The notes under the pieces were generated by a model. That model had not been told where the DNA came from. It saw only the letters and a program-made list of their open reading frames with translations, and made no database searches. A stretch of 64,000 bases of DNA from Escherichia phage vB_EcoM_Lh1B: the sequence record OK428535.1; one strand, 5' to 3'. Of the stretch, positions 1 to 21,877 are shown one piece after another. Both the position numbers and the translations under genes were made by a program. How positions within the stretch are numbered: the stretch's first letter is position 1; each line of letters starts with the position of its first letter.

Positions 1-232
1 CTTCATCCATTTTGCAGTGATGGCATTACCTTGCTTTACAGTAAGGTTGTCAGTACCACTTAAACTGTTGTGTTGCTTCTCTACAGGTGTCTCTGTTGCA
101 TCGACAGCTGTAGGATTAATAAAGTTAACTTCGATAGGGATGACTTTAACTCGAGTGGCACCACGAGGTTTATCTTCCGCGACGATACCTATCGAGAAGA
201 TGTGCAACCCTGACTTAGATTTATTCATACCA
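1..232 (-). CDS. hypothetical protein, 5' part (ORF continues past left edge)
   Basis: Reverse-complement of 1-232 translates without stops from ATG (comp. 230-232): MNKSKSGLHIFSIGIVAEDKPRGATRV...; GAGGAGGG SD-like sequence upstream on minus strand; absent from ORF track because truncated. Confidence 0.5.
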
Positions 233-408
233 CCCTCCTCTCATACTACACTTTTTTACGTTTCGATCTCATCGTTTGACAATCGAGGAGTGTACGGGGG
301 TAAGGGGGTTTATGTATTGGATGCGAACATAAACGGAGGTATCCGTAGGATACCGACATCCTTTTTGTAGTTGACCTTGACTTTTAACCTAACGAGGAGT
401 GCAGTACC

Positions 409-726
409 ATGTCTTTATTTCAAACCATTAAAAGTGCATTAGAGCGTAATGATGCAGACAGTGCCTTTACTGCGTTACAGAAAGCCAGTAACGGGAAGCT
501 AGACAGCGTCTTTGCTAACAATCAAAGAATGCGCTTTTACAAAGTGGGGGAAGTAGACCAGTTCTACGACGAACTGTTTACGGGGGTAGTGCAAAGCGCG
601 GTATACGCCATGCCGACTGAACAATTAAGTCAGTTTGAAAAAGGGATGCGTTACCAGCGGTTAAGTAACGACTACGCATTACTGAATCTGGCTATCGATG
701 ACTGCGTCGTGCTGGTCGTATACTAA
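409..726 (+). CDS. hypothetical protein (105 aa)
   Basis: ORF track; GAGGAG 8 nt upstream of ATG. Confidence 0.55.
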   Translation: MSLFQTIKSALERNDADSAFTALQKASNGKLDSVFANNQRMRFYKVGEVDQFYDELFTGVVQSAVYAMPTEQLSQFEKGMRYQRLSNDYALLNLAIDDCVVLVVY

Positions 727-733
727 GTTTTTA

Positions 734-757
734 CAGATAGATGTCATCTTAGTGAGC
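734..757 (+). promoter_or_regulatory. class A upstream motif, divergent copy
   Basis: CAGATAGATGTCATCTTAGTGAGC resembles the AGAYAGATATTAYCTA family; intergenic upstream of 847 gene. Confidence 0.3.
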
Positions 758-846
758 ATTGTGTATAAACCCACAGTCGCTTAAACACCAACTGTTCTTT
801 AGTAACAGTTTTTGGTCGCTTTAGTGTACTTTAAAGGAAATACCAA

Positions 847-2085
847 ATGTATAACGAATACGAATTAGTTTACCAGACACCGAAAGAAGCATTCTTTAAT
901 GCAGTAATTACTAACTCAATTGTACTGTTGGGAATGCAGTTCAGTATTCGGAGTATGGCTTACAGCGACGTAACGTGGCAGGATTGTGCGTACCTGCCAC
1001 AAAAGCTCTCAACCGTTGTCGAAAAGCGGCTGCTTGACAAAGGGGAAGTAAAGTGCCGTTTAGGCCACCACGTCTCTGACTTTGAGCCGTGGGTTGAGTT
1101 AACCATGACATTCGAAGGGGATTCGCGGGTAGCTTACCTATCGGGTAATCAAAACATCGGACGCGCCATTGCTGAGGGTAACACAATGTGGGTGCACTAC
1201 ATTCTTACTCTGCTGACCGGTAAACCGGTGTTCGAGTTAACACCTGACATGCCCGCACTAAGCGATAGCAACTGGTGGACTGGCGGAGAGCTGAATACAG
1301 GGTTTAATGAGAAATTACAAAACTTTAATTCAGAGCGACTCGATGTTGATGCGGAAGTGTTAGTGCAGCAGTTCCCCGAATTCACTGCGTACCAAATTAC
1401 TACCGTATGGAATAGAGCGGTAAGCAAGCGCAGATTCTACACGAAAAACGCACCGCGTGAAGCAGCCAAACCTGTGGAAATTGACGAAGACACCAAAGAA
1501 GCACTGCGTGATCTAGTCACCATAGCCAATGATAGCAATATGATGTTCTGGACATCTGATGAAAACGCTAACCATTATTTCGGTGAGATGTTAGACGCCG
1601 ATGTTTGGTCAGTAATGCCGATAGCAGAGCCCGGAAACCTTAAAGATTACCATAAGGTCGAAAAAGGCGATGTGGTTAATGAGAAGGTCGTCACCCTTCT
1701 TAACGTTTTCCGCGAAGTTATCCAGTCAGAAATACTGTTAAGCATCTATAAACGCAAGACCCCGGCCAGTGAAAATGACACGGCGTGGGTATTTGACTGT
1801 CGACCGACAAATACAATATCGCCTGCGTTCTGGATACAGGTGACAGGAAAGCTGCAGCGTGTGAACAGTTCCGTTGTTTCTCGCCTGCCAGATTCTGAAA
1901 NGCGCTCCGTTGCCGAACCTGCTTATTTGNTGTCGGNGAAGGNGGTANGGGATGCGTGGGGTACCAACGAACTGAAACAGTGGCATTACGATGCCATCAT
2001 CAAATGGGGTGTTAACAATGGCTGGAAAGAAGTGACTAAGTACGGCCGTCAACTATTGTTTGTCGCTGATTTGCGTTTACTGTAA
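847..2085 (+). CDS. hypothetical protein (412 aa)
   Basis: Long ORF; AAGGAA upstream; followed by terminator hairpin; contains n-masked codons near C-terminus. Confidence 0.7.
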   Translation: MYNEYELVYQTPKEAFFNAVITNSIVLLGMQFSIRSMAYSDVTWQDCAYLPQKLSTVVEKRLLDKGEVKCRLGHHVSDFEPWVELTMTFEGDSRVAYLSGNQNIGRAIAEGNTMWVHYILTLLTGKPVFELTPDMPALSDSNWWTGGELNTGFNEKLQNFNSERLDVDAEVLVQQFPEFTAYQITTVWNRAVSKRRFYTKNAPREAAKPVEIDEDTKEALRDLVTIANDSNMMFWTSDENANHYFGEMLDADVWSVMPIAEPGNLKDYHKVEKGDVVNEKVVTLLNVFREVIQSEILLSIYKRKTPASENDTAWVFDCRPTNTISPAFWIQVTGKLQRVNSSVVSRLPDSEXRSVAEPAYLXSXKXVXDAWGTNELKQWHYDAIIKWGVNNGWKEVTKYGRQLLFVADLRLL

Positions 2086-2095
2086 TCTCGTCATC

Positions 2096-2124
2096 GGGGG
2101 TCTTGTACCCCCTTCTTATTTTTT
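2096..2124 (+). terminator. intrinsic terminator
   Basis: GGGGGTCTTGTACCCCC hairpin followed by TTCTTATTTTTT. Confidence 0.7.
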
Positions 2125-2145
2125 AACCGTAAAGAGTATTTAACC

Positions 2146-2727
2146 ATGCCACAACCAATTATTGAACAACATGAAATGAACTACGAAGAACTGACCCGCC
2201 GCTATCGCGTGAAAGCCCCACGGGTAGTAGAAGGTTGCGAGAAATACAAAGAAGCAGACTTCGTGGTATTCCAACGCGAAGGTGTTCCGATGCTGGTGTT
2301 CGTAAAACACGTCACCACCGATAACGACGACCGTCTAGTGATGCTGTATAACGTGATGGCTACCGTACTAGATACTGATATTGGGTTGTTACGTCGTTAT
2401 AAATCATCCTACGAACAGAAAGCGAAGGTGGTTGCTTTTGACTTACCACGCACGGTACTAGTAGATGGTTCCCGTCCGGCTATTCTTCGTTTTACGAAAA
2501 GCGAAGACGACAGTAACCCAGCGCATATTGTTCAGCCACTAACGCTGTCGCAAGATACGTTACAGCAGAACGGTGGGATGGATTGGCTAAACGTCATGTT
2601 ACCGGGCCTAGCTGAAGGTCAGGAACTGCATCTGGTTTGCTACACCCCATCCGTCGAGCACACCTATGCGCGTTACCTTACCGAAGAACACGGTTTCCGT
2701 AACCACCGTGGTATTTACATTGCGTAA
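2146..2727 (+). CDS. hypothetical protein (193 aa)
   Basis: ORF track; follows terminator; no recognisable motif. Confidence 0.65.
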   Translation: MPQPIIEQHEMNYEELTRRYRVKAPRVVEGCEKYKEADFVVFQREGVPMLVFVKHVTTDNDDRLVMLYNVMATVLDTDIGLLRRYKSSYEQKAKVVAFDLPRTVLVDGSRPAILRFTKSEDDSNPAHIVQPLTLSQDTLQQNGGMDWLNVMLPGLAEGQELHLVCYTPSVEHTYARYLTEEHGFRNHRGIYIA

Positions 2728-2736
2728 GGTGAGTGT

Positions 2737-3300
2737 ATGTTCCGTTTACTAGAAATTCGAAACGATATCTGGCAAGAGCACATCCGCAACGATCCGGAGT
2801 GGGAAGGGGTTGAAAGTGATTTACCGGATAACCCCGACCAGCTGTTGGTGTTCCTTTATAGCGATAAAGCCAAACAGATCAAGGGGATATTTGAACGTAA
2901 AACGACAAGCTTGTCGACCTTACTGAGCTGCATTTGCTGTGGCGTCAGTGAGCTTGATCCCAATCTATTCACCAACTATCTTGCGCGTAAAGTCCGTACA
3001 CCGCTACTGGAGGTTACACTCCCGCCAGATATTCGTATCAGTAAAACTGTACCGACTGTTTTGCGTTTACAGGATGTCTCTGGCAGCAGCGACGACGGGG
3101 AAACAACGATTACCCTTTCCTCGTCAGAGAGTGAACTCGCAACCGAATCGTTTCTTAGCGAAGTCGAGGCCGGATTAAAGCAGGACGTAATCGTCTATAA
3201 TCTCGGCGGTGTGCCCATTGAGCCCATTTTACACTTCTTTGAAAGCCAAACCTGCCATCTCGTAGAGAGCTTAACATATCACTTTAAAGGAGCCTTATAA
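2737..3300 (+). CDS. hypothetical protein (187 aa)
   Basis: ORF track; AAGGTGAG upstream. Confidence 0.65.
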   Translation: MFRLLEIRNDIWQEHIRNDPEWEGVESDLPDNPDQLLVFLYSDKAKQIKGIFERKTTSLSTLLSCICCGVSELDPNLFTNYLARKVRTPLLEVTLPPDIRISKTVPTVLRLQDVSGSSDDGETTITLSSSESELATESFLSEVEAGLKQDVIVYNLGGVPIEPILHFFESQTCHLVESLTYHFKGAL

Positions 3301-3584
3301 TGAAACTCGAAGGTTATATTGTTACTGATAAGCCGTTTGTTGAGGCTAACCTTTCACGTTCTCAAGTTGTCTATAAAGACATCGATGTCCCTGCTGAAAT
3401 TGTTAAAGCGAANCCCAGCTGGCNAATCAACCNCGTTTCTTTGGAAATCACNAANCCGTTTATCAACGANCCAACCGNCCCATTTGTCGACATGGGTAAT
3501 TTCCGCGAGATTCTTTCCCCGCATCAATACCAGACAGTTGCACAGAAGAAAGGGAAGCTGCTCATTGAAACGTTGAGTGTGTAG
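3300..3584 (+). CDS. hypothetical protein (94 aa)
   Basis: ATG overlaps upstream stop (TAATG); AAGGAG upstream; n-masked middle. Confidence 0.55.
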   Translation: MKLEGYIVTDKPFVEANLSRSQVVYKDIDVPAEIVKAXPSWXINXVSLEIXXPFINXPTXPFVDMGNFREILSPHQYQTVAQKKGKLLIETLSV

Positions 3585-3589
3585 TTTAT

Positions 3590-3630
3590 CTCCAGTAACC
3601 ACGAGGGTTACTGGAGTCCTCTTATTTTTT
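3590..3630 (+). terminator. intrinsic terminator
   Basis: CTCCAGTAACC-ACGAG-GGTTACTGGAG hairpin followed by TCCTCTTATTTTTT. Confidence 0.75.
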
Positions 3631-3663
3631 ACACTTAACTCAAATTAATTTGAGGTGTGGTAT

Positions 3664-4251
3664 ATGACAGAACGTATTTTACGACTGCAAGAGAACAAGT
3701 TAGAAGACCTGCACGTAATGCGTAGTCGTGGCTTGTTTCCGGTGGGGCTTGATGTGAGTGGATTATTAACTGCCGCAGAGCACGGGGATAGGGTCATTAC
3801 AATGCATTCGCGTGGGAGCGAAGTGGTCTCTGCGATTTTCATCGATAAGGTTATTCCAGACTCGGAAAGCGGTAGGGAGGCAGGACACATCATTTACGAA
3901 TACTTTCGCAGCATTCTATACGAGGAAAAGATAAATGTCAAAACTTTTATGGAGTACGCTAAGCGAAATAACTACATCGATGCGCGACTGATGGTCACGG
4001 AAGGCACCCCAACTATAAACGGTAAAGTCCATCATCGTTTACTTGGGGCGCAGTTGCCGAGACTGGGTGAGTTACCGACGNNGNTAGAGCTANACCAAAA
4101 AACAGATTGGCGACACAAAATCGAAGTGCTTCACAAGCTTTACGATTTATCGATCGTTCAAATCAAACTGGTGGACTTCACGCCTGCAAATATGCAAATC
4201 GCTAAGCGAGCATTGGGTTTTCGTATTCTTAACACAACCTTCACATTGTAA
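3664..4251 (+). CDS. hypothetical protein (195 aa)
   Basis: ORF track frame; start moved from GTG 3655 to ATG 3664 with TGAGGTG upstream. Confidence 0.65.
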   Translation: MTERILRLQENKLEDLHVMRSRGLFPVGLDVSGLLTAAEHGDRVITMHSRGSEVVSAIFIDKVIPDSESGREAGHIIYEYFRSILYEEKINVKTFMEYAKRNNYIDARLMVTEGTPTINGKVHHRLLGAQLPRLGELPTXXELXQKTDWRHKIEVLHKLYDLSIVQIKLVDFTPANMQIAKRALGFRILNTTFTL

Positions 4252-4256
4252 AATAT

Positions 4257-4283
4257 CTCAGATATATATTACCTAGGTGAGAG
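4257..4283 (+). promoter_or_regulatory. class A upstream motif (phage promoter-like)
   Basis: CTCAGATATATATTACCTAGGTGAGAG; near-identical copy at 62815-62840. Confidence 0.5.
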
Positions 4284-4303
4284 TTAAGAGATTAACTCAA
4301 CTG

Positions 4304-4331
4304 GCTACCCTCGGGTAGCCTATTCTTTTTT
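4304..4331 (+). terminator. intrinsic terminator
   Basis: GGCTACCC-TCG-GGTAGCC hairpin followed by TATTCTTTTTT. Confidence 0.75.
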
Positions 4332-4334
4332 AAA

Positions 4335-4350
4335 CCAATCGACTATAGAG
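4335..4350 (+). promoter_or_regulatory. class B upstream motif
   Basis: CCAATCGACTATAGAG directly after terminator T-run, about 20 nt before ATG. Confidence 0.4.
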
Positions 4351-4356
4351 TAAAAC

Positions 4357-4758
4357 ATGACTATCAAGAAGTTCTTACAAGCAGTAGTAGTTCTGGCCGC
4401 ATGTGGTATTGCAGCAACTTATGCTTTCGATAAGCCAGACGTGACTGAATACACATCAGCTGATTCGGATTATGGCATTGCACCGAATGAAAAACCGGAA
4501 CTGATGCGTGAGGTCGAACAGTTACAAATCTACAGACTGACGGACGGTAAGAACTGCACAGGGCTGGTTATCGCTGATAAGAAATTGAAAATGTATCAGC
4601 GGTTAATCGACATATCGTGCAATCAACCAAAAGTCACCTCGGTCAGTGTATCGCCACTGGAATTACCGAATTTGGTTGCTGTGAGCTTTTATCACAACGA
4701 TGTGCTCGTCGGTCGCATCACCCTCAATCGTGGAGATATCAAAAATGAAATGCAATAA
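4357..4758 (+). CDS. putative lipoprotein (133 aa)
   Basis: N-terminus MTIKKFLQAVVVLAAC with LAAC lipobox-like signal; preceded by terminator and conserved upstream motifs. Confidence 0.6.
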   Translation: MTIKKFLQAVVVLAACGIAATYAFDKPDVTEYTSADSDYGIAPNEKPELMREVEQLQIYRLTDGKNCTGLVIADKKLKMYQRLIDISCNQPKVTSVSVSPLELPNLVAVSFYHNDVLVGRITLNRGDIKNEMQ

Positions 4759-5236
4759 CGTCAATCGCCNCTTGGCCAAAGTGGTGCTTTTTACTGTGCT
4801 GTTGATGGCAGTTGTTGTTGGGCTACGGATTTCTAAGGCACGCGCTGACGAATTCAGCGGGTTCCAGGGCAGTATTAACGGCAGCATTCCAGCATATACC
4901 CGCACCATCAATCTTAATGATAAGCCGTTCTGGTGCAATGCGCGTAAGCTGCTTAAGAAACAGTGTCGTGTAGTTGACATATCCTTCAACGGTCGTGTCG
5001 CTATCGTACACCGTCCTGGCGATAAAGATTGCCCAGGTGGTTGGTGGGGTGCAGTCGACCGTCACAATGGTGACGCGTTATGGCTTATCCCTAATCGTGA
5101 TGAACTATCAGTGGAGAAAATTTGCAGCAAAGATTTCAGGGCCGGTTTTGTACAGCGACCGGATACCAAAACTCTGGCCTCCATCGCTATGTACTACGGT
5201 ATGGAAACCATCAAAACAATCGACTATTCAGAATAA
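4745..5236 (+). CDS. small exported/membrane-anchored 4-Cys protein (paralog family member)
   Basis: Start set to ATG 4745 (GGAG upstream, 14-nt overlap with previous gene); hydrophobic N-terminus; PFWC motif and 4 Cys shared with next gene. Confidence 0.6.
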   Translation: MKCNNVNRXLAKVVLFTVLLMAVVVGLRISKARADEFSGFQGSINGSIPAYTRTINLNDKPFWCNARKLLKKQCRVVDISFNGRVAIVHRPGDKDCPGGWWGAVDRHNGDALWLIPNRDELSVEKICSKDFRAGFVQRPDTKTLASIAMYYGMETIKTIDYSE

Positions 5237-5258
5237 CTCAAAAAATTGAGGTACTATT

Positions 5259-5669
5259 ATGAAACATTTTTTATTACCAGTTTTACTTGCTACTCTGGCC
5301 ATTAGCTTCTTCGCTCGCGCTGGAAGTATCGAGTTACCAAAAGTTGTTAACGATCACGAATACGGCGGGCCGTTCTGGTGCCAGAACTCTGACGTACAAG
5401 GCGGTAGCTGTCAGATCGTTGCGATGTCCGATAACAACCGTTACCTGTTAGTGAAAACGATGGGCGGTGTCGCATGTGGCGACCCTGAATACGGGGTTAT
5501 TAACATGGCAACAGGTCAGGCCGAATCCATGAACTACAATGATAACCAAGCCTGCAGTGGTGAAGCCGTTGCTGAGTTTACTCGCGACCCAGGTGATAAT
5601 GCCCTGACGGTTATCATGTACGACCCTACGATTAAGAAAAACGTGGGCATCAATAAACTCGACTTTTAA
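5259..5669 (+). CDS. small secreted 4-Cys protein (paralog family member)
   Basis: Signal-peptide-like MKHFLLPVLLATLAISFFARAGS; PFWC motif; 4 Cys. Confidence 0.65.
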   Translation: MKHFLLPVLLATLAISFFARAGSIELPKVVNDHEYGGPFWCQNSDVQGGSCQIVAMSDNNRYLLVKTMGGVACGDPEYGVINMATGQAESMNYNDNQACSGEAVAEFTRDPGDNALTVIMYDPTIKKNVGINKLDF

Positions 5670-5682
5670 GTAAGGAAACAAC

Positions 5683-6066
5683 ATGCGTGGACTTATGGGT
5701 ATTATCGCGGCGGTGTTCTTGACCGCTTCTGCTTCAGCTACAACCAGCGTAGAAGATTTACTGCCAGGCACACCGTATCAGTACAACCCGCCTTCATTCG
5801 AAGTCTGTACTGGCGACAATGGCAGATGTGAAGAAGTCAGCCGTCACGACGAGTATATCCTGGTCCACGCAAAGGGCGAGGAAACTTGTCCGGCTGGTTA
5901 CTACTTCTTGTTGAACTCAAAGGCACAAGAGATTGTGCCGGTAGAGACAATAACGTGCGACCCGACGCTTCGCGCGTCGCTCGCTTACAATACGAAAACC
6001 AAACAACGCCTCCTGGTTATTGAACAGCAAGGGGTGGTGCGTGGTTCAGTAGCGCTCGACCAGTAA
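5683..6066 (+). CDS. small secreted 4-Cys protein (paralog family member)
   Basis: Signal-peptide-like MRGLMGIIAAVFLTASASA; C-x7-C plus two further Cys; AAGGAAA upstream. Confidence 0.65.
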   Translation: MRGLMGIIAAVFLTASASATTSVEDLLPGTPYQYNPPSFEVCTGDNGRCEEVSRHDEYILVHAKGEETCPAGYYFLLNSKAQEIVPVETITCDPTLRASLAYNTKTKQRLLVIEQQGVVRGSVALDQ

Positions 6067-6077
6067 CCGAAAAGTTT

Positions 6078-6100
6078 TCAGACAGATGTTATAACGTGAG
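6078..6100 (+). promoter_or_regulatory. class A upstream motif, divergent copy
   Basis: TCAGACAGATGTTATAACGTGAG followed by small hairpin 6096-6117. Confidence 0.35.
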
Positions 6101-6122
6101 ATGACGACCCATCTCACTTTGG

Positions 6123-6166
6123 CCCTGCGGTGATTTCCCCAACACTTAGCCGCAGGGTCCTTTTTA
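6123..6166 (+). terminator. hairpin with T-run (terminator/attenuator-like, long loop)
   Basis: CCCTGCGG...CCGCAGGG stem with about 20-nt loop followed by TCCTTTTT. Confidence 0.4.
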
Positions 6167-6178
6167 ATCGACTATTAC
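6165..6178 (+). promoter_or_regulatory. class B upstream motif
   Basis: TAATCGACTATTAC after hairpin/T-run, before GTAAGGATT RBS region. Confidence 0.45.
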
Positions 6179-6195
6179 TCGTAAGGATTAAGCAA

Positions 6196-6696
6196 ATGAA
6201 CATGAACATTCTCGACGATACCCGTTCTTCTTTCTTTACTCAGATGAACGTCAATCCCGAACGTACCCNTGCCATTCTTTCCACTGGCTGGAAGTTAAAG
6301 CTGTTAGGCGAGTTAACCCTAAACCGCACCGACTGGCCAGAAGAAGCGACCGTATTGATTAACAGCATTCACAGCGAGTGGCTAGATGCTGCGTTGAATG
6401 CCCCACAACTACGTCCGTACTATCGGATGCTTCATGCGGGTTATGAAGTATACCGCAAAGGTTGGTACGCTGCAGCCACTTATTGCAAAACCCCTGAAGG
6501 TCGTGAAGACAACACTGTCGACCACGTATTAGTAAACAATTTCTGGGGCGACCAAATCGAAGTCTTACAACTTTCCACCGGNGACCGTATTCCGGCCTGT
6601 GAGTTATTCGAAACTAACGCACAAATGTACGAACCATATGCAATGATTCGTGGCCGTAAGGTCCCAATCATTTCCCTTATGCATATGGGGCTGTAA
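6196..6696 (+). CDS. hypothetical protein (166 aa)
   Basis: Start set to ATG 6196 downstream of hairpins and TTAATCGACTATTAC motif; track ORF starts further upstream at 6130. Confidence 0.6.
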   Translation: MNMNILDDTRSSFFTQMNVNPERTXAILSTGWKLKLLGELTLNRTDWPEEATVLINSIHSEWLDAALNAPQLRPYYRMLHAGYEVYRKGWYAAATYCKTPEGREDNTVDHVLVNNFWGDQIEVLQLSTXDRIPACELFETNAQMYEPYAMIRGRKVPIISLMHMGL

Positions 6697-6704
6697 ATAC
6701 GAGA

Positions 6705-6732
6705 GGTAGCCCGTAGGCTACCTTCTTTTTTT
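6705..6732 (+). terminator. intrinsic terminator
   Basis: GGTAGCC-CGTA-GGCTACC hairpin followed by TTCTTTTTTT. Confidence 0.75.
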
Positions 6733-6750
6733 GTTGAAGAAGGATTAAAC

Positions 6751-7377
6751 ATGAACGAGATTACCCTGATTCGTTTCATCGACGACATGGTGACGTGTCA
6801 GAAAGCGAATCGTCAGGATACCAAACTGCGTATCAATCTGATGGAAGAAGAGGTAGAAGGGTTTCTGGAATACCCGCGATTGGTGAAGTGGTTTAAAGAA
6901 GCGCTGCCGCGTAGCTGGGAACAGCTAGAAGCGTGGTTTGCTCTACCTATTGCAGAACGTAATCCCAATAATACGATCTTCACCGGAACTACTGCATTAG
7001 ATTTGGCTGGTTCGGTGGAGCAACCTAAACGTTTAGTTTTCTTCTACGTCAATGGCGATTCAATAATGGCTGATACAGTTAACTGGATTTCCGATGAGTT
7101 AACTGTAAACACCACTTTGGTCGGTAGCGCTGCTGATGCCTGGGTTGTTGGTCAGCACCAATCGCAACCGTACGAAGAAATCAAAACCGGTTATTTAATC
7201 CCGATATATCTCGACGGCGTGGCACCGGGTCGCAGCGCAGAACTGTTCAAATTCCTGCTTACTGAAACGTTAAAGGTTGTCGATTCTGATGCCGGGCGTG
7301 CGTGGTATGAATTAACCAAAGAGCGCACCGATAGTTTTTGGGAATCACTCGGACACCGTAAGTTTATTCCGCAATAA
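6751..7377 (+). CDS. hypothetical protein (208 aa)
   Basis: ORF track; bracketed by terminators; no clear Mre11 phosphoesterase motifs. Confidence 0.65.
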   Translation: MNEITLIRFIDDMVTCQKANRQDTKLRINLMEEEVEGFLEYPRLVKWFKEALPRSWEQLEAWFALPIAERNPNNTIFTGTTALDLAGSVEQPKRLVFFYVNGDSIMADTVNWISDELTVNTTLVGSAADAWVVGQHQSQPYEEIKTGYLIPIYLDGVAPGRSAELFKFLLTETLKVVDSDAGRAWYELTKERTDSFWESLGHRKFIPQ

Positions 7378-7388
7378 CTCTCCTCTCT

Positions 7389-7420
7389 GGAACCCTTCGG
7401 GGTTCCATTTNTTCTTTTTT
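7389..7420 (+). terminator. intrinsic terminator
   Basis: GGAACCC-TTCG-GGGTTCC hairpin followed by T-rich run. Confidence 0.75.
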
Positions 7421-7473: not shown

Positions 7474-9984
7474 ATGCACAAGGTCGAACGTATCATTTTN
7501 AAAGNNTTTACCGGCATGGGGTTACATGAAANNNAAANNTTTGATTTCACCCTTAANTCAACCGTTACCANCATCCTCGGTGGCAACGGCTGCGGTAAAA
7601 CAAGCCTCCTGTCTGTTTTTCTCCCCTTAGCTCCAGCAAAATCAGAATTCCGTGAAGGTGGTTCCTACACTAACTACGCGTTAGTTGGGGACGACCGTCT
7701 TAAGTTTGAAGTCCTGCGTCGTGGCTCTTCTCTGTCTTGTAGTATTTTCAATATCACTAAAGGTGTCTCCATCGTAGACTCGGTAAACGCCAAAGTTTAC
7801 AACTCCATGGTGGAGCAATTAACCGGAATCACCAAAGAAATCAAAGAGTTAATTAATGGTGAGACCTTATTAACTGACGCCACTACCGAAGTTCGTCGTA
7901 AATGGTTTACGTTAATGTCAGAATCTGATCTGACGTACGTTGTTGGTTGCTATCGACGTTTGCGTAAACTCGCTTCCAGTTTAAGTGGGGCCATTGAGCA
8001 CACCGGCCGTAAAATCGGTGAGGCAAAAATGCGCGTGGTGGACGATGAAGAAGATCGTGCACGTTTAGAAGTTCGTTTGAAAGAACTCGATGCTGAGCTT
8101 CAGGAATTAAACCGCACAATTGAAGCGAGACCCGGTTTAGATAACGCCGTTTCGGTTGATAGTATCCGGAAACGCATTGCTTCGTTGCAACCGGCTGTAA
8201 AACTCATTATGGAACGTTATGGCGTTCTGCCTTCTGACGAACTGATTAACGAGTTTCAAAGTCGTGTGGTTGCCTGGCGTGAGCAAGCTGCCTCTGCTGA
8301 AACTGAATGCAACATGTACAATAAAGAGTTGTCACAGCTACTGGATGAGGAGTCGCGTCAAGCGTATCTGATGCGCAACCATACCGGTCTAAAACAAACA
8401 ATCGACAGCTTAAAACAGGAACTGGCAACGTTCCAACAGAACTGGATGTTCCCGGCTCTGTTTGAAGGTACCCGCATTGATGTGGATAGCATTCAGAACG
8501 CGTTAAACGATGCCTGTAACTGGAATTTACCGTTGTCCATGCATCTGGACCAGTTAAAGACAACAGATCGCCTGGGAGCGTTAGAGAAGCGTTTACAGGG
8601 TATGGATTTAACCTCTGCGGGTCTATCTGAAAAGCTGCAACGTTGTGAGAATGTGCTACACGGTTTATACCACGACCGTCAACACTTCTTAGAAACTGCA
8701 GAAGTTGATTGTCCACAGTGTAACCACCGTTTCCGTCCTGGGATTCGTAAGTCGTTACCTGAAATTGAAAAGGCCATCAACGATAATGAAGGTTGGAAGA
8801 AGCAGCTGAAAGACGAAATGGATAGTCTTTTGCGTGACCGCAAAGAGATTGAAGAGGACGTCCGTAGCTTACGTACGATTCGCGAAATCGTCATGTCGTA
8901 TTCCAACCATCCTGTTGTCGGTTTGTTTTTCCGTAAACTGCAGGAGCTGGATATCTTCACCACGGCGCGGGATCGTTACGGTGCCATTGCACGTGCCTTT
9001 ACTGAAGAGCTAGATTCGGCCATGATGTATCTGCGTCAATCGGCGAAGCTTGCAACAGCGGAACGGGAATGGCAAGAGGCTGTTGCCGCAGTAGGTAACG
9101 TTGATGGTGCGCTGAGCCAGAAAATTGAACATATCCGTTCACAACTGGACGGGGCTAACCGTCGACTGATAGAATACCGCAGACAAGCCAATGAGCTGGA
9201 ACGCGAAACCACCCAACTGCAACAAACCAAAGAAGCAATCGAACGTTTCCAAAAAGGCTACGAACATCTGGTATCGGAAATGAACATCTCCGTTAACAAC
9301 GTCGTGGTTCGTGAGTTGTTAAACCGACGCGAAGCGAAGCTCGATGCGTATACTTCAGCTCGTGAACGGTTTCGTCAAATGGAAGGGGCTATTGCACGTT
9401 TAGCGGAATTGGAAAAAGAGCAAGCTGAGTTGCTCAAAGAACACCATCNNGNCNGATTGATTATCAATGCCGTCTCACCCGAAAAAGGATTATTGCGTCG
9501 TTACTTTTATGCTGCGATTACCCGCATCATGGATTTAATGAATCGGTATATCGAAATGGTGTGGGCATATCCGATGCAGGTTATTCCATGCGATCTAACC
9601 GACGGGGATTTGGATTATACTTTCCCGGTGCGATTAAAAGACCATGAAGAACTGGTGCCGGATGTGAAGAAAGGTTCGAAGGCACAGCGTATTATCTTTA
9701 ACATGATGTTTCGTTTAACGGCGTATAAAGCGCTTGGTTTACAAAACTATCCTTTGTTNTTNGATNAANCCNCNNAAGGCATGGATGAANAACANAAAAA
9801 NCGCCTGGTCAACTTCTTTAAATCGTTGGNGTTGTTGGGGGAGTTTTCTNAANTGCTGGTCGTTTCGCATGAAGCGGAAGTTCATTCTAAACTTAACGAA
9901 GCCACCTACTGTGTCGTGGAGCCAGAAGGTGTAACGCTTCCACCGGTTTATAACGAAGGGGTAATAATCAAATATGCATCATAA
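7474..9984 (+). CDS. SbcC/Rad50-like SMC-family ATPase
   Basis: Walker A GGNGCGKTS near N-terminus; long predicted coiled-coil middle with CPQC (CxxC hook-like) near residue 410; C-terminal ...LVVSHEAEV after partly n-masked Walker B/signature region. Confidence 0.75.
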   Translation: MHKVERIIXKXFTGMGLHEXXXFDFTLXSTVTXILGGNGCGKTSLLSVFLPLAPAKSEFREGGSYTNYALVGDDRLKFEVLRRGSSLSCSIFNITKGVSIVDSVNAKVYNSMVEQLTGITKEIKELINGETLLTDATTEVRRKWFTLMSESDLTYVVGCYRRLRKLASSLSGAIEHTGRKIGEAKMRVVDDEEDRARLEVRLKELDAELQELNRTIEARPGLDNAVSVDSIRKRIASLQPAVKLIMERYGVLPSDELINEFQSRVVAWREQAASAETECNMYNKELSQLLDEESRQAYLMRNHTGLKQTIDSLKQELATFQQNWMFPALFEGTRIDVDSIQNALNDACNWNLPLSMHLDQLKTTDRLGALEKRLQGMDLTSAGLSEKLQRCENVLHGLYHDRQHFLETAEVDCPQCNHRFRPGIRKSLPEIEKAINDNEGWKKQLKDEMDSLLRDRKEIEEDVRSLRTIREIVMSYSNHPVVGLFFRKLQELDIFTTARDRYGAIARAFTEELDSAMMYLRQSAKLATAEREWQEAVAAVGNVDGALSQKIEHIRSQLDGANRRLIEYRRQANELERETTQLQQTKEAIERFQKGYEHLVSEMNISVNNVVVRELLNRREAKLDAYTSARERFRQMEGAIARLAELEKEQAELLKEHHXXXLIINAVSPEKGLLRRYFYAAITRIMDLMNRYIEMVWAYPMQVIPCDLTDGDLDYTFPVRLKDHEELVPDVKKGSKAQRIIFNMMFRLTAYKALGLQNYPLXXDXXXXGMDEXXKXRLVNFFKSLXLLGEFSXXLVVSHEAEVHSKLNEATYCVVEPEGVTLPPVYNEGVIIKYAS

Positions 9985-10165
9985 AGGTTGGCGCTTATGG
10001 GCTTGGTGGGGTTTCCAGTTCCTTCAGTTTGTTGTGATGGTACTGTACCTCTCCTTTTGTGCAACCGTAGTGGTTATCGCTGCGGTCGTTTATTTAGCTG
10101 CTGCTCTTAAAGAACGTCTGTTCGACACGCGTTGTGAGTGGCGAGATATGGGGGAACGGACATGA
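9974..10165 (+). CDS. small hydrophobic membrane peptide (63 aa)
   Basis: ORF track; W-rich then TM-like VVMVLYLSFCATVVVIAAVVYLAAAL; overlaps upstream stop. Confidence 0.4.
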   Translation: MHHKGWRLWAWWGFQFLQFVVMVLYLSFCATVVVIAAVVYLAAALKERLFDTRCEWRDMGERT

Positions 10166-10266
10166 TTGAAGGTATCGTATTAACCGGTATTGCACTGTGG
10201 TTGATTCGTGGTGCCTGGGGTTGGATTATCCGCACGAAAGGATGGGCGTTCCATGGCAACACGTAA
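10162..10266 (+). CDS. tiny membrane peptide (34 aa)
   Basis: ATGA overlap with previous stop; translates MIEGIVLTGIALWLIRGAWGWIIRTKGWAFHGNT; below ORF-track size cutoff. Confidence 0.3.
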   Translation: MIEGIVLTGIALWLIRGAWGWIIRTKGWAFHGNT

Positions 10267-10444
10267 ACCACGTCGCTTAAAATCTTGGGNGGTTGTGGTA
10301 ATGCACACTGTAGTGTTGCTGGGTNTTTTCTTGTCTCGTGCCACNCCTGCCTTTTGGGGCTTAGTTGTTTTGGTGTTCTTAGAAGGGGTTTACTTCGGTA
10401 ATCTGTGGAGCAAGCCCCCCGNGTTTAAGGGACCCGGCTTATGA
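10253..10444 (+). CDS. small membrane peptide (63 aa)
   Basis: ATG 10253 within track ORF 10208-10444; MATRKPRRLKSW then hydrophobic stretch; n-masked codons. Confidence 0.3.
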   Translation: MATRKPRRLKSWXVVVMHTVVLLGXFLSRAXPAFWGLVVLVFLEGVYFGNLWSKPPXFKGPGL

Positions 10445-10964: not shown

Positions 10965-11110
10965 TTATAGACACGGTTCCGATAGAGAACTGGTCTTCAC
11001 CTCTGGCGGTATACACCGCTTAAGTTTACCGGTAAACTTAAGAAAACACAAACCCAATTCTTCGTTACTCNCTTTCATCGCAGGTGAAAGCTCACTTAGG
11101 AATTCAGCTC

Positions 11111-11599
11111 ATGGCCGAAATTGTCATTCTTTCCTCATCCTCAGATTTAACGGAAGCACAAAATAAACAGCTGTTGGGGCTGCATTATAAATTTCTGAAC
11201 CACCAACGTACCATACTCCATATCGAAAAAGGTGAGATTCCGAACCTCACTCTGGAGAAACTGTTGGCGGGGAACCGTGCTTGTGTTGCTCTGGAAGGGG
11301 GTACCCCTGTTGGTTACTGTTTGTATCGCGTAATCGCTGGGGTTCTGAAGATTCGTACGATGTTCGTGTCTGAAATGGCACGCCGTCGTAAAACGATGAC
11401 GCAGATTTTTGATGCGCTTGATGTGAATGNGCAGTTCACCAGTGCGCATGGGGGAATATACGCTTGCCAGGAAGCTGGTATTGCGTTCTTTACCNCTCGC
11501 GGTTTTGACAAGACCGTCTCTACAGACGGACAATGGCTTGAATTTAAGAAGCAGGTTCTTGCGGAAGCAGATGAACCTTTAAGGACTGCGGTAGCATAG
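11111..11599 (+). CDS. possible GNAT-family acetyltransferase (weak)
   Basis: Start set to ATG 11111 (AGGAA upstream); ...GTPVGYCLYRV...MFVSEMARRRKTMTQIFDAL...ACQEAGIAFFT.RGF resembles GNAT core and C-terminal motif only loosely. Confidence 0.4.
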   Translation: MAEIVILSSSSDLTEAQNKQLLGLHYKFLNHQRTILHIEKGEIPNLTLEKLLAGNRACVALEGGTPVGYCLYRVIAGVLKIRTMFVSEMARRRKTMTQIFDALDVNXQFTSAHGGIYACQEAGIAFFTXRGFDKTVSTDGQWLEFKKQVLAEADEPLRTAVA

Positions 11600-11670
11600 T
11601 CCTGTTTTAGCACTCCTTACGATTATGCCTCACTATGAGTGGGGTATTTTTTACGCGAGGAGTGCTATTT

Positions 11671-11880
11671 ATGTTTCACCGTCCCGGGTTTTCAGCTTTA
11701 AACACCGATGTCTGTTGGGCTGAGTACGAGCGGGTGAAGGAGTTCTTACCCGTAAATCCTAAACACATCAACGTGGGTACTATCGGGCGTGTTGCGTTCG
11801 ATGACACTCCGCTGAGTACGTGTATTAAAGCTGCGCTTGGTACGCTGCCGGCGTCTATAGTGTTTGAGGAATTAAAATGA
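11671..11880 (+). CDS. hypothetical protein (69 aa)
   Basis: ATG 11671 with GCGAGGAG upstream within track ORF 11635-11880. Confidence 0.4.
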   Translation: MFHRPGFSALNTDVCWAEYERVKEFLPVNPKHINVGTIGRVAFDDTPLSTCIKAALGTLPASIVFEELK

Positions 11881-12395
11881 CGGACATTCGTGTTGACATA
11901 TATGGGGAAATTCATACCACGGCCGATCGTAATCGTGTTGAATGGGCTATCATCGATAACCATCGGAAAAAACCATACGATTTTTTACTGTGTGAAGAAC
12001 TGGGGCCGTATGAACATCACACTGCAAAAGCGCAAGATAAGGCATTAAAGGAGAAGATGTACTCTATTGGACCCATGGGGCTGGAGTTGGCTAAGAAACT
12101 CGGCATCCCTGCTATTGGGATCGATGACTGGAGCGACGCAACCTACGCTAAAGATATCAAGGATAAAAAGGGAATGGCTGTAAACTTTAGCCGTTCTTTT
12201 TATATTNGTGAAACTAAAATGGTTGCAAAAATTAAAAAGTATATGGCAAAAGGGCGTTGTGCTGTTATGCTTGGCGACTCACACTTGCGCACCACGAAAA
12301 CTAAAGAGCTTGGTGATGCGTCCCTTATCTGGGAAACGTTTAAGGATAATCCTGAAGTGAAGTTTCACAGGAGCCCTAAACGCGAGATTGATTAA
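11877..12395 (+). CDS. hypothetical protein (172 aa)
   Basis: ORF track; ATGA overlap with upstream stop. Confidence 0.6.
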   Translation: MTDIRVDIYGEIHTTADRNRVEWAIIDNHRKKPYDFLLCEELGPYEHHTAKAQDKALKEKMYSIGPMGLELAKKLGIPAIGIDDWSDATYAKDIKDKKGMAVNFSRSFYIXETKMVAKIKKYMAKGRCAVMLGDSHLRTTKTKELGDASLIWETFKDNPEVKFHRSPKREID

Positions 12396-12413
12396 ATCTA
12401 AAGGAGCATTAAA

Positions 12414-12836
12414 ATGGTTACCGCTATTCGCGAAACAAAATCACTATACGATCATTTATCAGAAGAAGAAACAGCCTTATTCTACGACCTGTTACCTGAA
12501 ACCAAAGCAAATGTTCAGTGGTGGTTACGTTTAGCGCTACGTGATAAAGTTGGGGAAACGCCGGTTAGTATTCTCGCACACACGTTGGACATGACACCCA
12601 TGATTGAAATCGCGATTACCCGCCCTAAATTCTGGCGACCTGGTATGGTGCGTGAGGCGTATCTACTCCAACGCTTAGGTGTTGACCCGGAGAAGTGTTG
12701 GCGTAAGATGGACGACCATCGCTACCGTGAAGAAATTACGAATAGCCTCAACACTATGTTGGCAATGAAACGACTCGGTATCGAANACGAAGGTTTCGAG
12801 TCTGCGGTGCAAGCGTGGGTGAGAAGGAATAGCTAA
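12414..12836 (+). CDS. hypothetical protein (140 aa)
   Basis: AAGGAGCATTAAAATG start context. Confidence 0.6.
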   Translation: MVTAIRETKSLYDHLSEEETALFYDLLPETKANVQWWLRLALRDKVGETPVSILAHTLDMTPMIEIAITRPKFWRPGMVREAYLLQRLGVDPEKCWRKMDDHRYREEITNSLNTMLAMKRLGIEXEGFESAVQAWVRRNS

Positions 12837-13085
12837 ATGCAAAAAACAATCATCGGAATAATGGTTAGTTCTTTCTGTGGTTTCCCTACCCCGCAGACAG
12901 AACCCCAATATTTGGGCGCAGGCAAACCTGATCCGGAAGTCCGTAAGTTGCGCGAAGAAGCAAAAGCCAGAGTTCTTACTGAGCTGGAATCGTTGCTTCA
13001 GTCTCCGGTTATTTCACAATGGGGTATGGCAATAGATGTCACTCGAACTGATCGACGAGGCTATTATCTCCCACGACCTGTTTAA
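12837..13085 (+). CDS. hypothetical protein (82 aa)
   Basis: ORF track; 3' end overlaps macrodomain gene start by about 50 nt, so uncertain. Confidence 0.35.
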   Translation: MQKTIIGIMVSSFCGFPTPQTEPQYLGAGKPDPEVRKLREEAKARVLTELESLLQSPVISQWGMAIDVTRTDRRGYYLPRPV

Positions 13086-13536
13086 CGCGCCTGAGCGCTT
13101 CAAGGTCGTTACAGTTAACTGTGTTGGTGCAATGGGAAGGGGCATTGCCTTGGCGTGCCGAGAACGCTTCCCATCGCTTTATAATGACTATCGCCAGAAA
13201 TGTCGTAAAGAGCAAATCGTTATCGGTGAGGTCTATTGTTATCCTGAGGAAGGGGTAATACTCCTTCCTACTAAAACCCATTTTCGCTATAAATCGCAGA
13301 TTTACTATGTCACGTCCGGCATTGATGCGCTGGCGCGACTAGGGGAAGACTTAGAAGGAGGGATTGCGATACCNCCCCTAGGGATGGCTAACGGTTGGTT
13401 ACGTTACCATGAGCGATTGGAAATCTTTATACACTTACAGAAACGACTACAGCACACGGAGCAGACTTATCGATTCTATTTACCAGACACCCTGCTGAGG
13501 GAAGCAGAGAAAATCATCCCAAAAAGTTTCAAATAG
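13036..13536 (+). CDS. macrodomain protein, TARG1/DarG-like
   Basis: DLFNAPERFKVVTVNCVGAMGRGIALACRERFP...IGEVYCYPEEGVILLPTK...GGIAI.PLGMANGWL lines up by eye with the TARG1-type block DLFxCP...C....RMGAGIA...FKKKF...GEV...TK...P.IGCG. Confidence 0.65.
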   Translation: MSLELIDEAIISHDLFNAPERFKVVTVNCVGAMGRGIALACRERFPSLYNDYRQKCRKEQIVIGEVYCYPEEGVILLPTKTHFRYKSQIYYVTSGIDALARLGEDLEGGIAIXPLGMANGWLRYHERLEIFIHLQKRLQHTEQTYRFYLPDTLLREAEKIIPKSFK

Positions 13537-13559
13537 ATATTATTATCAGGGCACATTAC
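13533..13559 (+). promoter_or_regulatory. class A upstream motif, divergent copy
   Basis: ATAGATATTATTATCAGGGCACATTAC resembles ATAGATATTATCTACAGGGAC at 22623. Confidence 0.35.
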
Positions 13560-13635
13560 AAAGGAGCACAATGCCGTCCGCGCCGTCTTCCCGGATTGGG
13601 AACGGAAAAGTATAAATCCGTTTGGAGATACATCC

Positions 13636-14358
13636 ATGTTTCNCACCATTTTATTTCTTCTGGTAGCAGTGACCACATTCAACAGCAACGCTTCTTACCA
13701 GACCACCAGTAACAAACACCAAAAAGAATTCGTCCTTATCCAGGACCAGTTCAATGAGATTAAACCTCTCATCGTCACCGCATCTCGAAAACAAGGCGTA
13801 CATGCCGGGATGCTCGCGACCACCATTTATCGTGAATCCCGTTTTAATAAAAACGTGGGTAAGAATAAATCGAGCAGTGCTAGTAGTGTTGTCCAAATGA
13901 CGACAGGCACTAAACGCTCCATGATACGTCTGTATGGGAAACAACTTAACATCCCAAAGAATGCGGACCTTAATAAACCGAAGTATGCTGTACAGCTTGC
14001 TGCCGTTTACATGAAACACATCGAGGATCATCTGACAAAACAACTCAAACGCAAGCCGAGCACAGCCGAAATCGCTTTAGGCTATCGCTTCGGTGAGGGT
14101 GCCGCTGTTGCGATGATTAAAAAGAAATCACCGGTCGGGAAACGCTGGATGGCNNGCNACNGAAAAGACGCAGCATTCTACGGTGCGAAAATGACACCAC
14201 CGAAAGNTGAAANACNNCNGNTTNNNTTTGNGNAGGNAGNCCANGNCCAACGNGTCGCCGAACTTCAGAAAATCTGGGATACGCTGTACACCAAAATATC
14301 ACCTGCGGCCGGTACATTACTGGCAAATAACACTATCATGAAAGGAGCATTGCTATGA
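13636..14358 (+). CDS. lytic transglycosylase-like protein with N-terminal hydrophobic signal/anchor
   Basis: Hydrophobic N-terminus MF.TILFLLVAVTTF; YRESRFN...SSASSVVQMT...AAVYM resembles the SLT E-S motif block; GGAGA upstream; C-terminal third n-masked. Confidence 0.55.
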   Translation: MFXTILFLLVAVTTFNSNASYQTTSNKHQKEFVLIQDQFNEIKPLIVTASRKQGVHAGMLATTIYRESRFNKNVGKNKSSSASSVVQMTTGTKRSMIRLYGKQLNIPKNADLNKPKYAVQLAAVYMKHIEDHLTKQLKRKPSTAEIALGYRFGEGAAVAMIKKKSPVGKRWMXXXXKDAAFYGAKMTPPKXEXXXXXFXXXXXXQXVAELQKIWDTLYTKISPAAGTLLANNTIMKGALL

Positions 14359-21876: not shown

Positions 21877-21877
21877 C

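Follow-up and report, generated by a model that had tools for sequence, protein, structure and literature searches.

An SbcC/Rad50-like ATPase gene in an SPN3US-like jumbo phage and its distant SbcD/Mre11 partner in complete relatives

The DNA analyzed here, a 64-kb stretch referred to below as the window, is 95 to 97% identical to the SPN3US, SPFM, and SPLA phages, and its source is an SPN3US-like jumbo phage (Seoulvirus, phiKZ-related). We found in it an intact open reading frame (ORF) running from an ATG start to a TAA stop, the product of which is 96.7% identical to SPN3US gp186 across all 836 residues when every X is counted as a mismatch. The two differ by point substitutions and N-masked codons only, with nothing functionally distinct between them, and the genomic setting of the gene in SPN3US and its close relatives is the same as in the window. 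The counterpart in SPN3US spans 168900-171410, and its annotations read "SMC domain-containing" or "SbcC-like." The product also matched phrog_77, "SbcC-like" (E=2e-83), and phiKZ gp165 over its full length (21% identity, E=1e-49). Both gp165 and gp186 match the window protein in length, in motifs, and in having a central C-P-x-C. The features of the locus are collected in Table 1.

Table 1. Features of the SbcC locus in window coordinates, with residue numbers for the 836-aa protein
Feature	Nucleotides	Residues	Strand	Remarks
208-aa gene upstream of SbcC	6751..7377		+	SPN3US gp185 ortholog; phrog_9964, unknown function
Terminator-like hairpin and T-run	7388..7407		+	Separates the 208-aa gene from SbcC
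SbcC/Rad50-like ATPase gene	7474..9984	836 aa	+	ORF; SPN3US gp186/phiKZ gp165 ortholog
Walker A/P-loop, GGNGCGKTS	7579..7605	36-44	+	Aligns with P. furiosus Rad50 P-loop
Outgoing helical arm	7885..8694	138-407	+	AF2; breaks at ~218-227, 248-254, 319-336, 361-366
Hook loop with CPQC (nt 8710-8721)	8695..8754	408-427	+	AF2 non-helical apex
Returning helical arm	8755..9474	428-667	+	AF2; breaks at ~477-481, 492-498, 537-549
ABC signature-like, GSKAQ	9673..9687	734-738	+	Aligns with Rad50 signature region
Walker B and D-loop, YPLxxDxxxxGMD	9748..9786	759-771	+	Partly N-masked; relatives read YPLLLDEPSEGMD
H-loop/switch, VVSHE	9859..9873	796-800	+	Aligns with Rad50 VSHD
63-aa hydrophobic transmembrane-type ORF	9974..10165		+	SPN3US gp187 ortholog; phrog_16515
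Short hydrophobic ORF	10208-10444			Downstream of SbcC

None of the immediate neighbors resembles a nuclease. The initial annotation had seen no phosphoesterase motifs in the 208-aa upstream product, and this reading held: the product hit no Pfam family at an E value of ≤0.1 and did not match an Mre11-detecting profile, and the 2 histidines in its whole translation could not make up the Mre11 motifs. The two downstream ORFs are indeed short and hydrophobic, as expected of the tiny membrane peptides they had been taken for. The first of them starts 11 nt before the end of the SbcC stop codon, an arrangement with translational coupling that is seen in the Seoulvirus/Wellingtonvirus lineage, and this ORF has been remarked on for SPN3US (PMC5105663). 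We found a hydrophobic counterpart only in Erwinia phage Kwan and none in pVa-21, phiKZ, or the Ralstonia and Aeromonas phages. Both the 208-aa and the 63-aa genes were considered as conserved partners of the ATPase and rejected, since the SbcC genes of phiKZ and of the Vibrio, Ralstonia, and Aeromonas relatives have neither of them alongside and the 63-aa gene is lineage specific. Small lineage-specific genes fill the flanks of SbcC. The window ORFs include no second SMC-like gene and no Mre11-like gene. A UvsX-like recombinase gene is annotated ~16 kb downstream of SbcC in the near-identical phage SPLA3 and projects to ~26.0-27.5 kb in the window.

We then asked what the ATPase resembles at the sequence level. 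In searches of the PDB, its best matches were to P. furiosus Rad50, both with the single sequence (E=8e-5) and with a family profile (E=1.2e-6), and the best NCBIfam matches included three Rad50 models (E=5e-16, 4e-13, and 1.4e-10). All curated scores nevertheless fell short of their cut-offs. The best NCBIfam Rad50 model scored 58.2 bits against a cut-off of 1087, and in Pfam the window protein gave P-loop matches only, all subthreshold. The clean SPN3US ortholog did slightly better, reaching 29.9 bits for SMC_N (cut-off, 40) and 19.5 bits for AAA_23 (cut-off, 27). We attribute these low scores to divergence, and they give no sign of a different fold. A homologue search with gp186 returned 46 proteins, all at least 29% identical; because it stopped at that level, relatives as distant as phiKZ were taken from phage records.

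The protein has a bipartite ABC head, with Walker A in the N-terminal half and the signature, Walker B, D-loop, and H-loop in the C-terminal half. In an alignment of 19 homologs reaching down to 29% identity, Walker A residues G36, N38, G39, G41, and K42 were invariant, as were G734, S735, A737, and Q738 of the signature, D764, E765, and D771 of the Walker B/D-loop segment, and S798 and H799 of the H-loop. The codon for E765 is N-masked in the window. The canonical ABC signature of Rad50 and SbcC is LSGGQ/E, whereas the phage ATPase has GSxAQ. Most of the distant family members examined also carry the head motifs. The signature pattern G-S-x-[AS]-Q was present in five of seven family members, and a search for it found none in the other two, the Ralstonia and Aeromonas proteins. 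A second departure may lie in the putative Q-loop segment, L-I-N-G-E (residues 126-130), in which G129 is invariant and the Vibrio-like homologs and phiKZ have T-G. With the register read from the sequence alignment, N or T, and not Q, appears to occupy the expected Q-loop position. The Walker A motif and C-terminal ABC region on which the initial annotation had based its Rad50/SbcC-like assignment were thus located and are conserved, and Rad50 was the best match.

Roughly 530 residues, mostly helical, separate the two halves of the head. An AF2 model of the protein (pLDDT, 82.3) predicts two long helical arms around a single apical loop, as expected of the long coiled coil that had been proposed from the sequence. 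Heptad periodicity was significant on both sides of the hook (z=4.2 for residues 365-406; z=4.1 for residues 421-462) and at residues 519-602 (z=3-4.4) and was weak over the rest of the arms. The CPQC motif (residues 413-416), already singled out as hook-like, is the sole CxxC in the protein. It lies at the midpoint of the chain and falls within the nonhelical apex of the model. The family consensus here is V-x-C-P-x-C-x-x-x-F-[RK]-P-G, and V411, C413, C416, F420, P422, and G423 were invariant among the 19 homologs. All seven family members examined, from Salmonella, Erwinia, Vibrio, Ralstonia, Aeromonas, and Pseudomonas phages, have exactly one CxxC, positioned at residue 407-414; in phiKZ gp165 it is CPSC at residue 412, so the motif is kept down to 21% identity. 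An apical CxxC loop is a hallmark of Rad50 and SbcC, in which a zinc hook and a coiled coil are standard. Conservation and model together point to a CxxC zinc hook at the apex of the coiled coil, with zinc binding predicted. The arms are parted by just 20 nonhelical residues, with no globular SMC hinge between them and no hinge domain in Pfam.

A Foldseek search with the model gave as its best match Rad50 from the C. thermophilum MRN complex (7zr1_D, E=2e-18), aligned over the full length. Smc5/6, condensin, MukB, Lamassu LmuB, and JetC also matched strongly (E values of 1e-15 to 1e-8), so the fold alone says SMC-like and not specifically Rad50.

The initial annotation had called the ATPase an orphan with no adjacent nuclease. 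Within the window this was borne out: the Mre11-detecting profile run against all ORFs of the 64 kb gave a best E value of 1.7, and a tblastn search for an Mre11-type gene gave 0.34. It had also suggested that the partner may be elsewhere, and in complete relatives it is, as was already published. Thomas et al. (2016) described SPN3US gp186 as the SbcC subunit and gp27 as SbcD, with "drastically separated" genes (PMC5105663). We located gp27 at 21020-22168 in SPN3US; its phiKZ counterpart is gp065.

To characterize gp27, we compared it with known nucleases by sequence and by predicted structure. It matched phrog_100, SbcD-like, with an E value of 8.5e-64, and Pfam Metallophos was subthreshold (E=0.032). 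Since phmmer with gp27 alone found nothing relevant in the PDB, we built a 47-sequence family profile, and all 16 of its PDB matches were Mre11/SbcD chains. T. maritima Mre11 ranked first (3qg5_C, E=8e-13), in an alignment that spans almost the whole sequence, through residue 360. The metal-ligand motifs are conserved (D22-x-H24, G57-D58, H101-D102, H180, and G211-H212-x-H214). Motif III reads as an invariant G97-T-P-S-H101-D102, which aligns with the G-N-H-D of T. maritima Mre11. An AF2 model of gp27 (pLDDT, 92.4) gave 29 best Foldseek matches that were all Mre11/SbcD, led by E. coli SbcD (7yzo_A, E=9.8e-14, TM 0.60). Its C terminus is modeled as a helix-loop-helix (helices 356-363 and 371-381), located where Mre11 has its Rad50-binding domain. 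By profile, motifs, and predicted fold, the gp27 family is true Mre11/SbcD.

We also compared the distributions of the two genes across phage records. The gp27 type was found in 300 records and the gp186 type in 299, with equal counts by genus (Pseudomonas, 81; Erwinia, 62; Salmonella, 35) except in Vibrio (23 versus 22). In all 17 genomes listing both coordinates, the genes lay at least 72 kb apart, and in SPN3US-like genomes the separation is ~90 kb. From the near-identical complete relatives, we infer that the SbcD/Mre11 partner is encoded elsewhere in the source genome, at an expected ~90 kb past the right end of SbcC on the circular map or ~147 kb going the opposite way. "Orphan" therefore describes the local neighborhood and the window but not the phage group, whose complete genomes encode a distant SbcD/Mre11.

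Published work shows the ATPase gene to be essential or needed for fitness in SPN3US and phiKZ. SPN3US gp186 is essential, as two independent amber mutants (am39 and am50) show (PMC5105663). In phiKZ, orf165 and the nuclease gene orf065 both belong to the core, and the phage is impaired when they are knocked down (PMC12571901); orf165 tolerates no transposon insertions (PMC12676376). SbcCD has been counted among the most conserved functions of jumbo phages. Among chimalliviruses the gene is an ordinary and already known part of the core, and the 2016 account of SPN3US covers its essential role, the SbcD partner, and how far apart the two genes lie. That paper (PMC5105663) does not address the zinc hook or the coiled coil.

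The closest phage parallel is T4 gp46/gp47, which is required for recombination, DNA replication, and host DNA breakdown (PMC5105663). It is likewise a phage-encoded, essential Mre11-Rad50 pair, essentiality here being that of gp186 in SPN3US, and in gp46, too, a coiled coil parts the two halves of a split ABC head. T4 also has a small transmembrane ORF, gp47.1, beside these genes, as the window has its 63-aa ORF. The T4 proteins, however, show no BLASTP-detectable similarity to the phage pair described here, the arm region of gp46 is shorter by ~300 residues in total (PMC5105663), and the T4 genes are clustered. Both phage subunits found their best matches, by sequence and by structure, in E. 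coli SbcCD and the archaeal and eukaryotic Mre11-Rad50 complexes. These complexes share with the ATPase the bipartite head, antiparallel arms, and apical CxxC, and Mre11/SbcD shares with the gp27-type nuclease the calcineurin-like fold, capping domain, and C-terminal helix-loop-helix. Identity to Mre11-Rad50 in the structural alignment is nevertheless only ~14%, the phage signature and nuclease motif III differ from LSGGQ/E and G-N-H-D, and the phage SbcC and SbcD genes, by contrast, lie in no operon. SMC proper, MukB, Smc5/6, LmuB, and JetC have in common with the phage protein an ABC head and a long intramolecular coiled coil; the phage ATPase instead has the short CxxC apex in place of a globular hinge, is core and essential, co-occurs with an Mre11-type nuclease, and has no kleisin or defense partner near its gene.

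These resemblances raise the question of whether the ATPase works without an Mre11-like nuclease, for example as an SMC-like organizer or tether of the replicating genome in the phage nucleus, with gp27 acting independently. The consistent distance between the genes, arms longer than those of gp46, and Foldseek scores for Smc5/6, condensin, and MukB that nearly equal that of Rad50 would all fit such a role. We nevertheless consider it very unlikely: the apex is a Rad50/SbcC-type CxxC loop, Rad50 came first in both sequence and fold searches, the records of the two genes nearly coincide in number and genus spread, the modeled C terminus of gp27 is placed like the Rad50-binding domain of Mre11, and no kleisin-like partner is evident beside the SbcC gene. 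The related suggestion that the ATPase may act outside canonical recombination likewise found no support, given a bona fide SbcD/Mre11 with near-identical record and genus counts.

That the gene might instead encode the SMC-like ATPase of an antiphage or antiplasmid system akin to Lamassu (LmuB), Wadjet (JetC), or PtuA, used in competition between viruses, is scarcely credible. Foldseek did match Lamassu LmuACB (E=1.6e-10) and JetABC (E of ~1e-8), a sequence search of the PDB weakly matched ATPases of retrons and PtuA (E=0.17-0.58), and the flanks are rich in small lineage-specific genes. Rad50 outscored these defense ATPases by sequence and by fold, however, and no LmuA, JetABD, or PtuB-type partner lies adjacent. 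Accessory defense genes are patchy and dispensable, and it is on distribution and essentiality that we reject this explanation: all the chimalliviruses examined have the gene (299 records), SPN3US cannot do without it, and phiKZ needs it. Extremely unlikely, too, is a frameshift or stop masked by the N stretches, which would make this copy of the gene a pseudogene or an assembly artifact. Thirty-two of the 2511 ORF bases are N, giving 22 X codons that include the Walker B glutamate, and several related SPFM records have fragmented or truncated protein calls for the gene. The N-containing stretches concerned (7498-7571, 9449-9454, and 9759-9853) leave the frame unbroken, though, and the same 836 codons are open as in SPN3US, in a gap-free alignment, for a gene that is essential there; at the N-masked position relatives read YPLLLDEPSEGMDEEHKNRLVNFIKSLALSGEFSQLLVVSHE. 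The 315 N bases are spread along the entire 64 kb, a pattern typical of ambiguous consensus calls, and we rejected the idea that they are targeted at SbcC.

We are therefore confident that the product of the gene is the SbcC/Rad50 subunit in an Mre11-Rad50-type (SbcCD) complex that the phage itself encodes. By analogy with established Rad50/SbcC proteins, the two arms would fold back on each other as an antiparallel coiled coil, and the CxxC hooks of two protomers would share one Zn2+ and so join them. On binding ATP, the two heads would engage and clamp DNA ends. A gp27-type nuclease dimer would dock to the heads by its C-terminal helix-loop-helix, and ATP hydrolysis would then drive the processing of DNA ends and hairpins by endo- and exonucleolytic cuts. 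Judging by T4 gp46/gp47, this activity probably leads into UvsX-dependent recombination and, for the 240-kb genome, into recombination-dependent replication. Genomes related to phiKZ routinely scatter functionally linked genes, and we ascribe the unlinked SbcC and SbcD genes to this habit and not to an ATPase that works alone.

The G-T-P-S-H-D motif of the nuclease, the GSxAQ signature of the ATPase, the possible loss of the Q-loop glutamine, and the 63-aa peptide could also be read as marks of a mechanistically altered Mre11-Rad50, perhaps specialized for the interior or the shell of the phage nucleus. We regard this reading of chimallivirus SbcCD as improbable. If it were true, the altered complex might process replication intermediates or genome ends, unlike a plain T4-like recombination nuclease.

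As a discovery the finding is of small value, the system having been described for SPN3US years ago, but it does add structure-level confirmation for both SbcCD subunits. It also means that the absence of a partner from a 64-kb window of a phiKZ-related genome is no evidence of an orphan. Finally, it flags small motif variants, present across the family, that biochemists working on chimallivirus DNA metabolism can test.

The SbcC gene of vB_EcoM_Lh1B (window positions 7474 to 9984, plus strand) is an intact ORF of 836 aa, and the motifs of its product are listed in the table. Alignment of 19 homologs, extending down to 29% identity, showed that Walker A, the signature, Walker B/D-loop, H-loop, and both cysteines were invariant, as were the hook-flanking residues V411, F420, P422, and G423. 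Exactly one CxxC was found, at residue 407 to 414 of 827 to 837, in all seven family members checked (Salmonella, Erwinia, Vibrio, Ralstonia, Aeromonas, and Pseudomonas phages, including phiKZ gp165 at 21% identity). The initial annotation of an SbcC-type ORF with Walker A, a CPQC hook motif, and C-terminal ABC motifs was thus borne out. At the Q-loop position expected from the alignment (aa 126 to 130), the sequence is L-I-N-G-E; the Vibrio-like homologs and that of phiKZ have T-G, and G129 is the only invariant residue; judged from sequence, the canonical Q-loop glutamine may be absent from the family.

Motifs of the SbcC protein and the hairpin preceding its gene
Feature	Position	Strand	Method
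Walker A, GGNGCGKTS	aa 36-44	+	motif search
CPQC, sole CxxC, at protein midpoint	aa 413-416	+	motif search
Signature-like GSKAQ	aa 734-738	+	motif search
Walker B/D-loop, YPLLLDEPSEGMD in relatives	aa 759-771	+	motif search and alignment
H-loop, VVSHE	aa 796-800	+	motif search
Hairpin and T-run between 208-aa gene and SbcC gene	7388-7407	+	terminator scan

We modeled the protein with AlphaFold2 from an 18-sequence alignment (mean pLDDT, 82.3). In the model, the N-terminal lobe is mixed alpha/beta and the C-terminal lobe alpha/beta; between them run helical arms (residues 138 to 407, with few breaks, and 428 to 667), and CPQC sits in a 20-residue nonhelical loop between the arms. Heptad periodicity, by a simple test, was significant on either side of the hook and over residues 519 to 602 and weak elsewhere. 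Any Rad50/SbcC would be expected to have the hook and coiled coil predicted here, the latter with a partial heptad signal. Assignment to that family was upheld by the top PDB matches: Pyrococcus furiosus Rad50 ranked first in the sequence search (E = 8e-5 with the single sequence, 1.2e-6 with the family profile), and Foldseek gave the best score to the Rad50 subunit in the Mre11-Rad50-Nbs1 complex of C. thermophilum (E = 2e-18). Among PHROGs, the protein matched phrog_77, "SbcC-like subunit of palindrome specific endonuclease" (E = 2e-83). It reached none of the curated Pfam and NCBIfam thresholds and is therefore a very divergent family member.

A nucleotide comparison found 35 phage records matching the 5-kb segment around the SbcC gene, with full-length identity of 95 to 97% to Salmonella phages SPN3US, SPFM, SPLA, SEGD1, and related phages. 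These relatives form the genus Seoulvirus (about 240 kb), phiKZ-related nucleus-forming jumbo phages. We searched the 64-kb window for Mre11/SbcD by tblastn with SPN3US gp27 and phiKZ gp065 (best E = 0.34) and with a gp27-family HMM, which recovered Thermotoga maritima Mre11 from PDB at 8e-13 and gave a best E of 1.7 against all 527 ORFs (minimum, 50 aa) in the six frames of the window. Neither search revealed an Mre11/SbcD-like ORF. The 208-aa product encoded upstream had no Pfam match and belongs to phrog_9964, which has no assigned function; it contains just two histidines, and phosphoesterase motifs are therefore not found in it. The nuclease is indeed not adjacent, as the initial annotation held.

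To judge by complete genomes of close relatives, the partner very probably lies elsewhere, a possibility already raised. Gene 27 of the complete SPN3US genome (21020 to 22168) is annotated as "nuclease SbcCD D subunit," and its product matched the SbcD-like phrog_100 (E = 8.5e-64). All 16 PDB matches of the gp27 family profile (47 sequences) were Mre11 or SbcD, and the profile spans T. maritima Mre11 almost end to end. The best 29 Foldseek matches of the gp27 AlphaFold2 model (pLDDT, 92.4) were likewise all Mre11/SbcD, headed by Escherichia coli SbcD (E = 9.8e-14; TM, 0.60). The metal-ligand motifs are kept except for motif III, where an invariant G-T-P-S-H-D replaces the metal-binding G-N-H-D of Mre11/SbcD, a change from Asn to Ser plus a two-residue insertion in SPN3US gp27 and phiKZ gp065 aligned to T. 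maritima Mre11. By tblastn, the gp27 type occurred in 300 phage records and the SbcC (gp186) type in 299, with equal counts in every genus except Vibrio (23 versus 22); the label "orphan" for the ATPase is not supported. The two genes were 72 kb or more apart in all 17 genomes with both coordinates (among them SPN3US, SPLA3, phiKZ, Kwan, FLC4-11C, sm033, PS1, Desertfox, Yubaba, and Eowyn). Around the 240-kb SPN3US map, the distances between them are 146.7 kb in one direction and 90.0 kb in the opposite one; on either path, the partner would fall outside the window.

Among the relatives examined, the 208-aa gene and a 63-aa hydrophobic ORF (9974 to 10165) adjoin SbcC only in the Seoulvirus and Erwinia-phage lineage. 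The 63-aa ORF shares its first 11 nt with the end of the SbcC gene, stop codon included, an arrangement that suggests translational coupling, and beyond it lies another short hydrophobic ORF. Erwinia phage Kwan has a 59-aa hydrophobic ORF in the equivalent position; no counterpart was found in pVa-21, phiKZ, or the Ralstonia or Aeromonas relatives examined. A strong hairpin and T-run also lies at 6703 to 6724, 3' of a 188-aa ORF (6130 to 6696), so each small gene upstream of SbcC appears to have a terminator-like element of its own at its end; the 4.1-kb region scanned held 10 such sites, where 4.0 ± 2.3 would be expected. SbcC is immediately preceded by a divergent baseplate-assembly gene in phiKZ and Aeromonas phage PS1, and the genes that follow it there are different ones. 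About 13 small genes (window about 400 to 7377), codirectional and without assigned function, separate the two in SPN3US-type genomes and thus represent a lineage-specific insertion or expansion. Three consecutive ORFs within this block (178, 136, and 127 aa; 4700 to 6066) match phrog_17072, phrog_8968, and phrog_5248 as well as each other's families, and they look like tandem paralogs. The stretch from about 11084 to 14358, between SbcC and a conserved transglycosylase gene, includes genes for a macro-domain protein, labeled "phosphatase" or "macro domain-containing," and for a GNAT acetyltransferase (phrog_3810, E = 3e-41); Vibrio phage pVa-21 has similar macro and transglycosylase genes after SbcC.

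The window contains 315 N in about 60 small clusters, without enrichment in the SbcC gene, and its mismatches to Seoulvirus relatives are mostly its own ambiguous bases. They mask 22 SbcC codons, including that of the Walker B glutamate (aa 765), so we considered a masked pseudogene. This is very unlikely: the frame is undisturbed, and the protein aligns to its relatives without gaps across all 836 residues. Several related SPFM records gave fragmented matches for the same genes, which suggests a low-quality consensus in that record set.

After Rad50, the next Foldseek matches were Smc5/6, condensin, MukB, and the SMC-like ATPases of Lamassu and Wadjet. An SMC-like organizer acting without the nuclease is nevertheless very unlikely, and so is a defense-type SMC ATPase, judged by the distribution and essentiality of the gene. 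The product is very probably a Rad50/SbcC subunit working with the unlinked gp27-type nuclease in recombination, as argued by its motifs, by a predicted architecture of head, arm, hook, arm, and head, by the conserved, co-occurring Mre11-type nuclease, and by the essentiality of the ATPase gene, marked in SPN3US by two amber mutants, am39 and am50 (PMC5105663). A role outside canonical recombination is not supported, given that conserved partner encoded at a distance. By analogy with Rad50/SbcC and T4 gp46/47, Zn would mediate hook dimerization, the heads would engage on DNA ends in an ATP-driven manner, and a gp27 dimer would dock via its C-terminal helix-loop-helix; processing of ends and hairpins would then feed UvsX-dependent recombination and recombination-dependent replication. 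Near-identical phage SPLA3 has an annotated UvsX-like recombinase gene about 16 kb downstream of SbcC, projecting to roughly 26.0 to 27.5 kb in the window.

The SbcC feature is already known. SPN3US gp186 was identified as the SbcC subunit, with phiKZ ORF165 as its homolog, by Thomas et al. (2016; PMC5105663), who catalogued its Walker A, signature, Walker B, D-loop, and H-loop, left the hook and coiled coil unmentioned, named gp27 as SbcD, remarked on the great distance between the two genes, and likened the downstream 63-aa transmembrane gp187 to T4 gp47.1. In phiKZ, both orf165 ("SbcC-like") and orf065 ("nuclease") belong to the core genome, and their knockdown by antisense impairs the phage (PMC12571901), and orf165 tolerates no transposon insertions (PMC12676376). 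In reviews, SbcCD is listed with the best-conserved functions of jumbo phages. Mild interest remains in the family-wide variants, namely, the GSxAQ signature, the G-T-P-S-H-D of the nuclease, and a possibly noncanonical Q-loop, and in where the predicted complex would work in a nucleus-forming phage.
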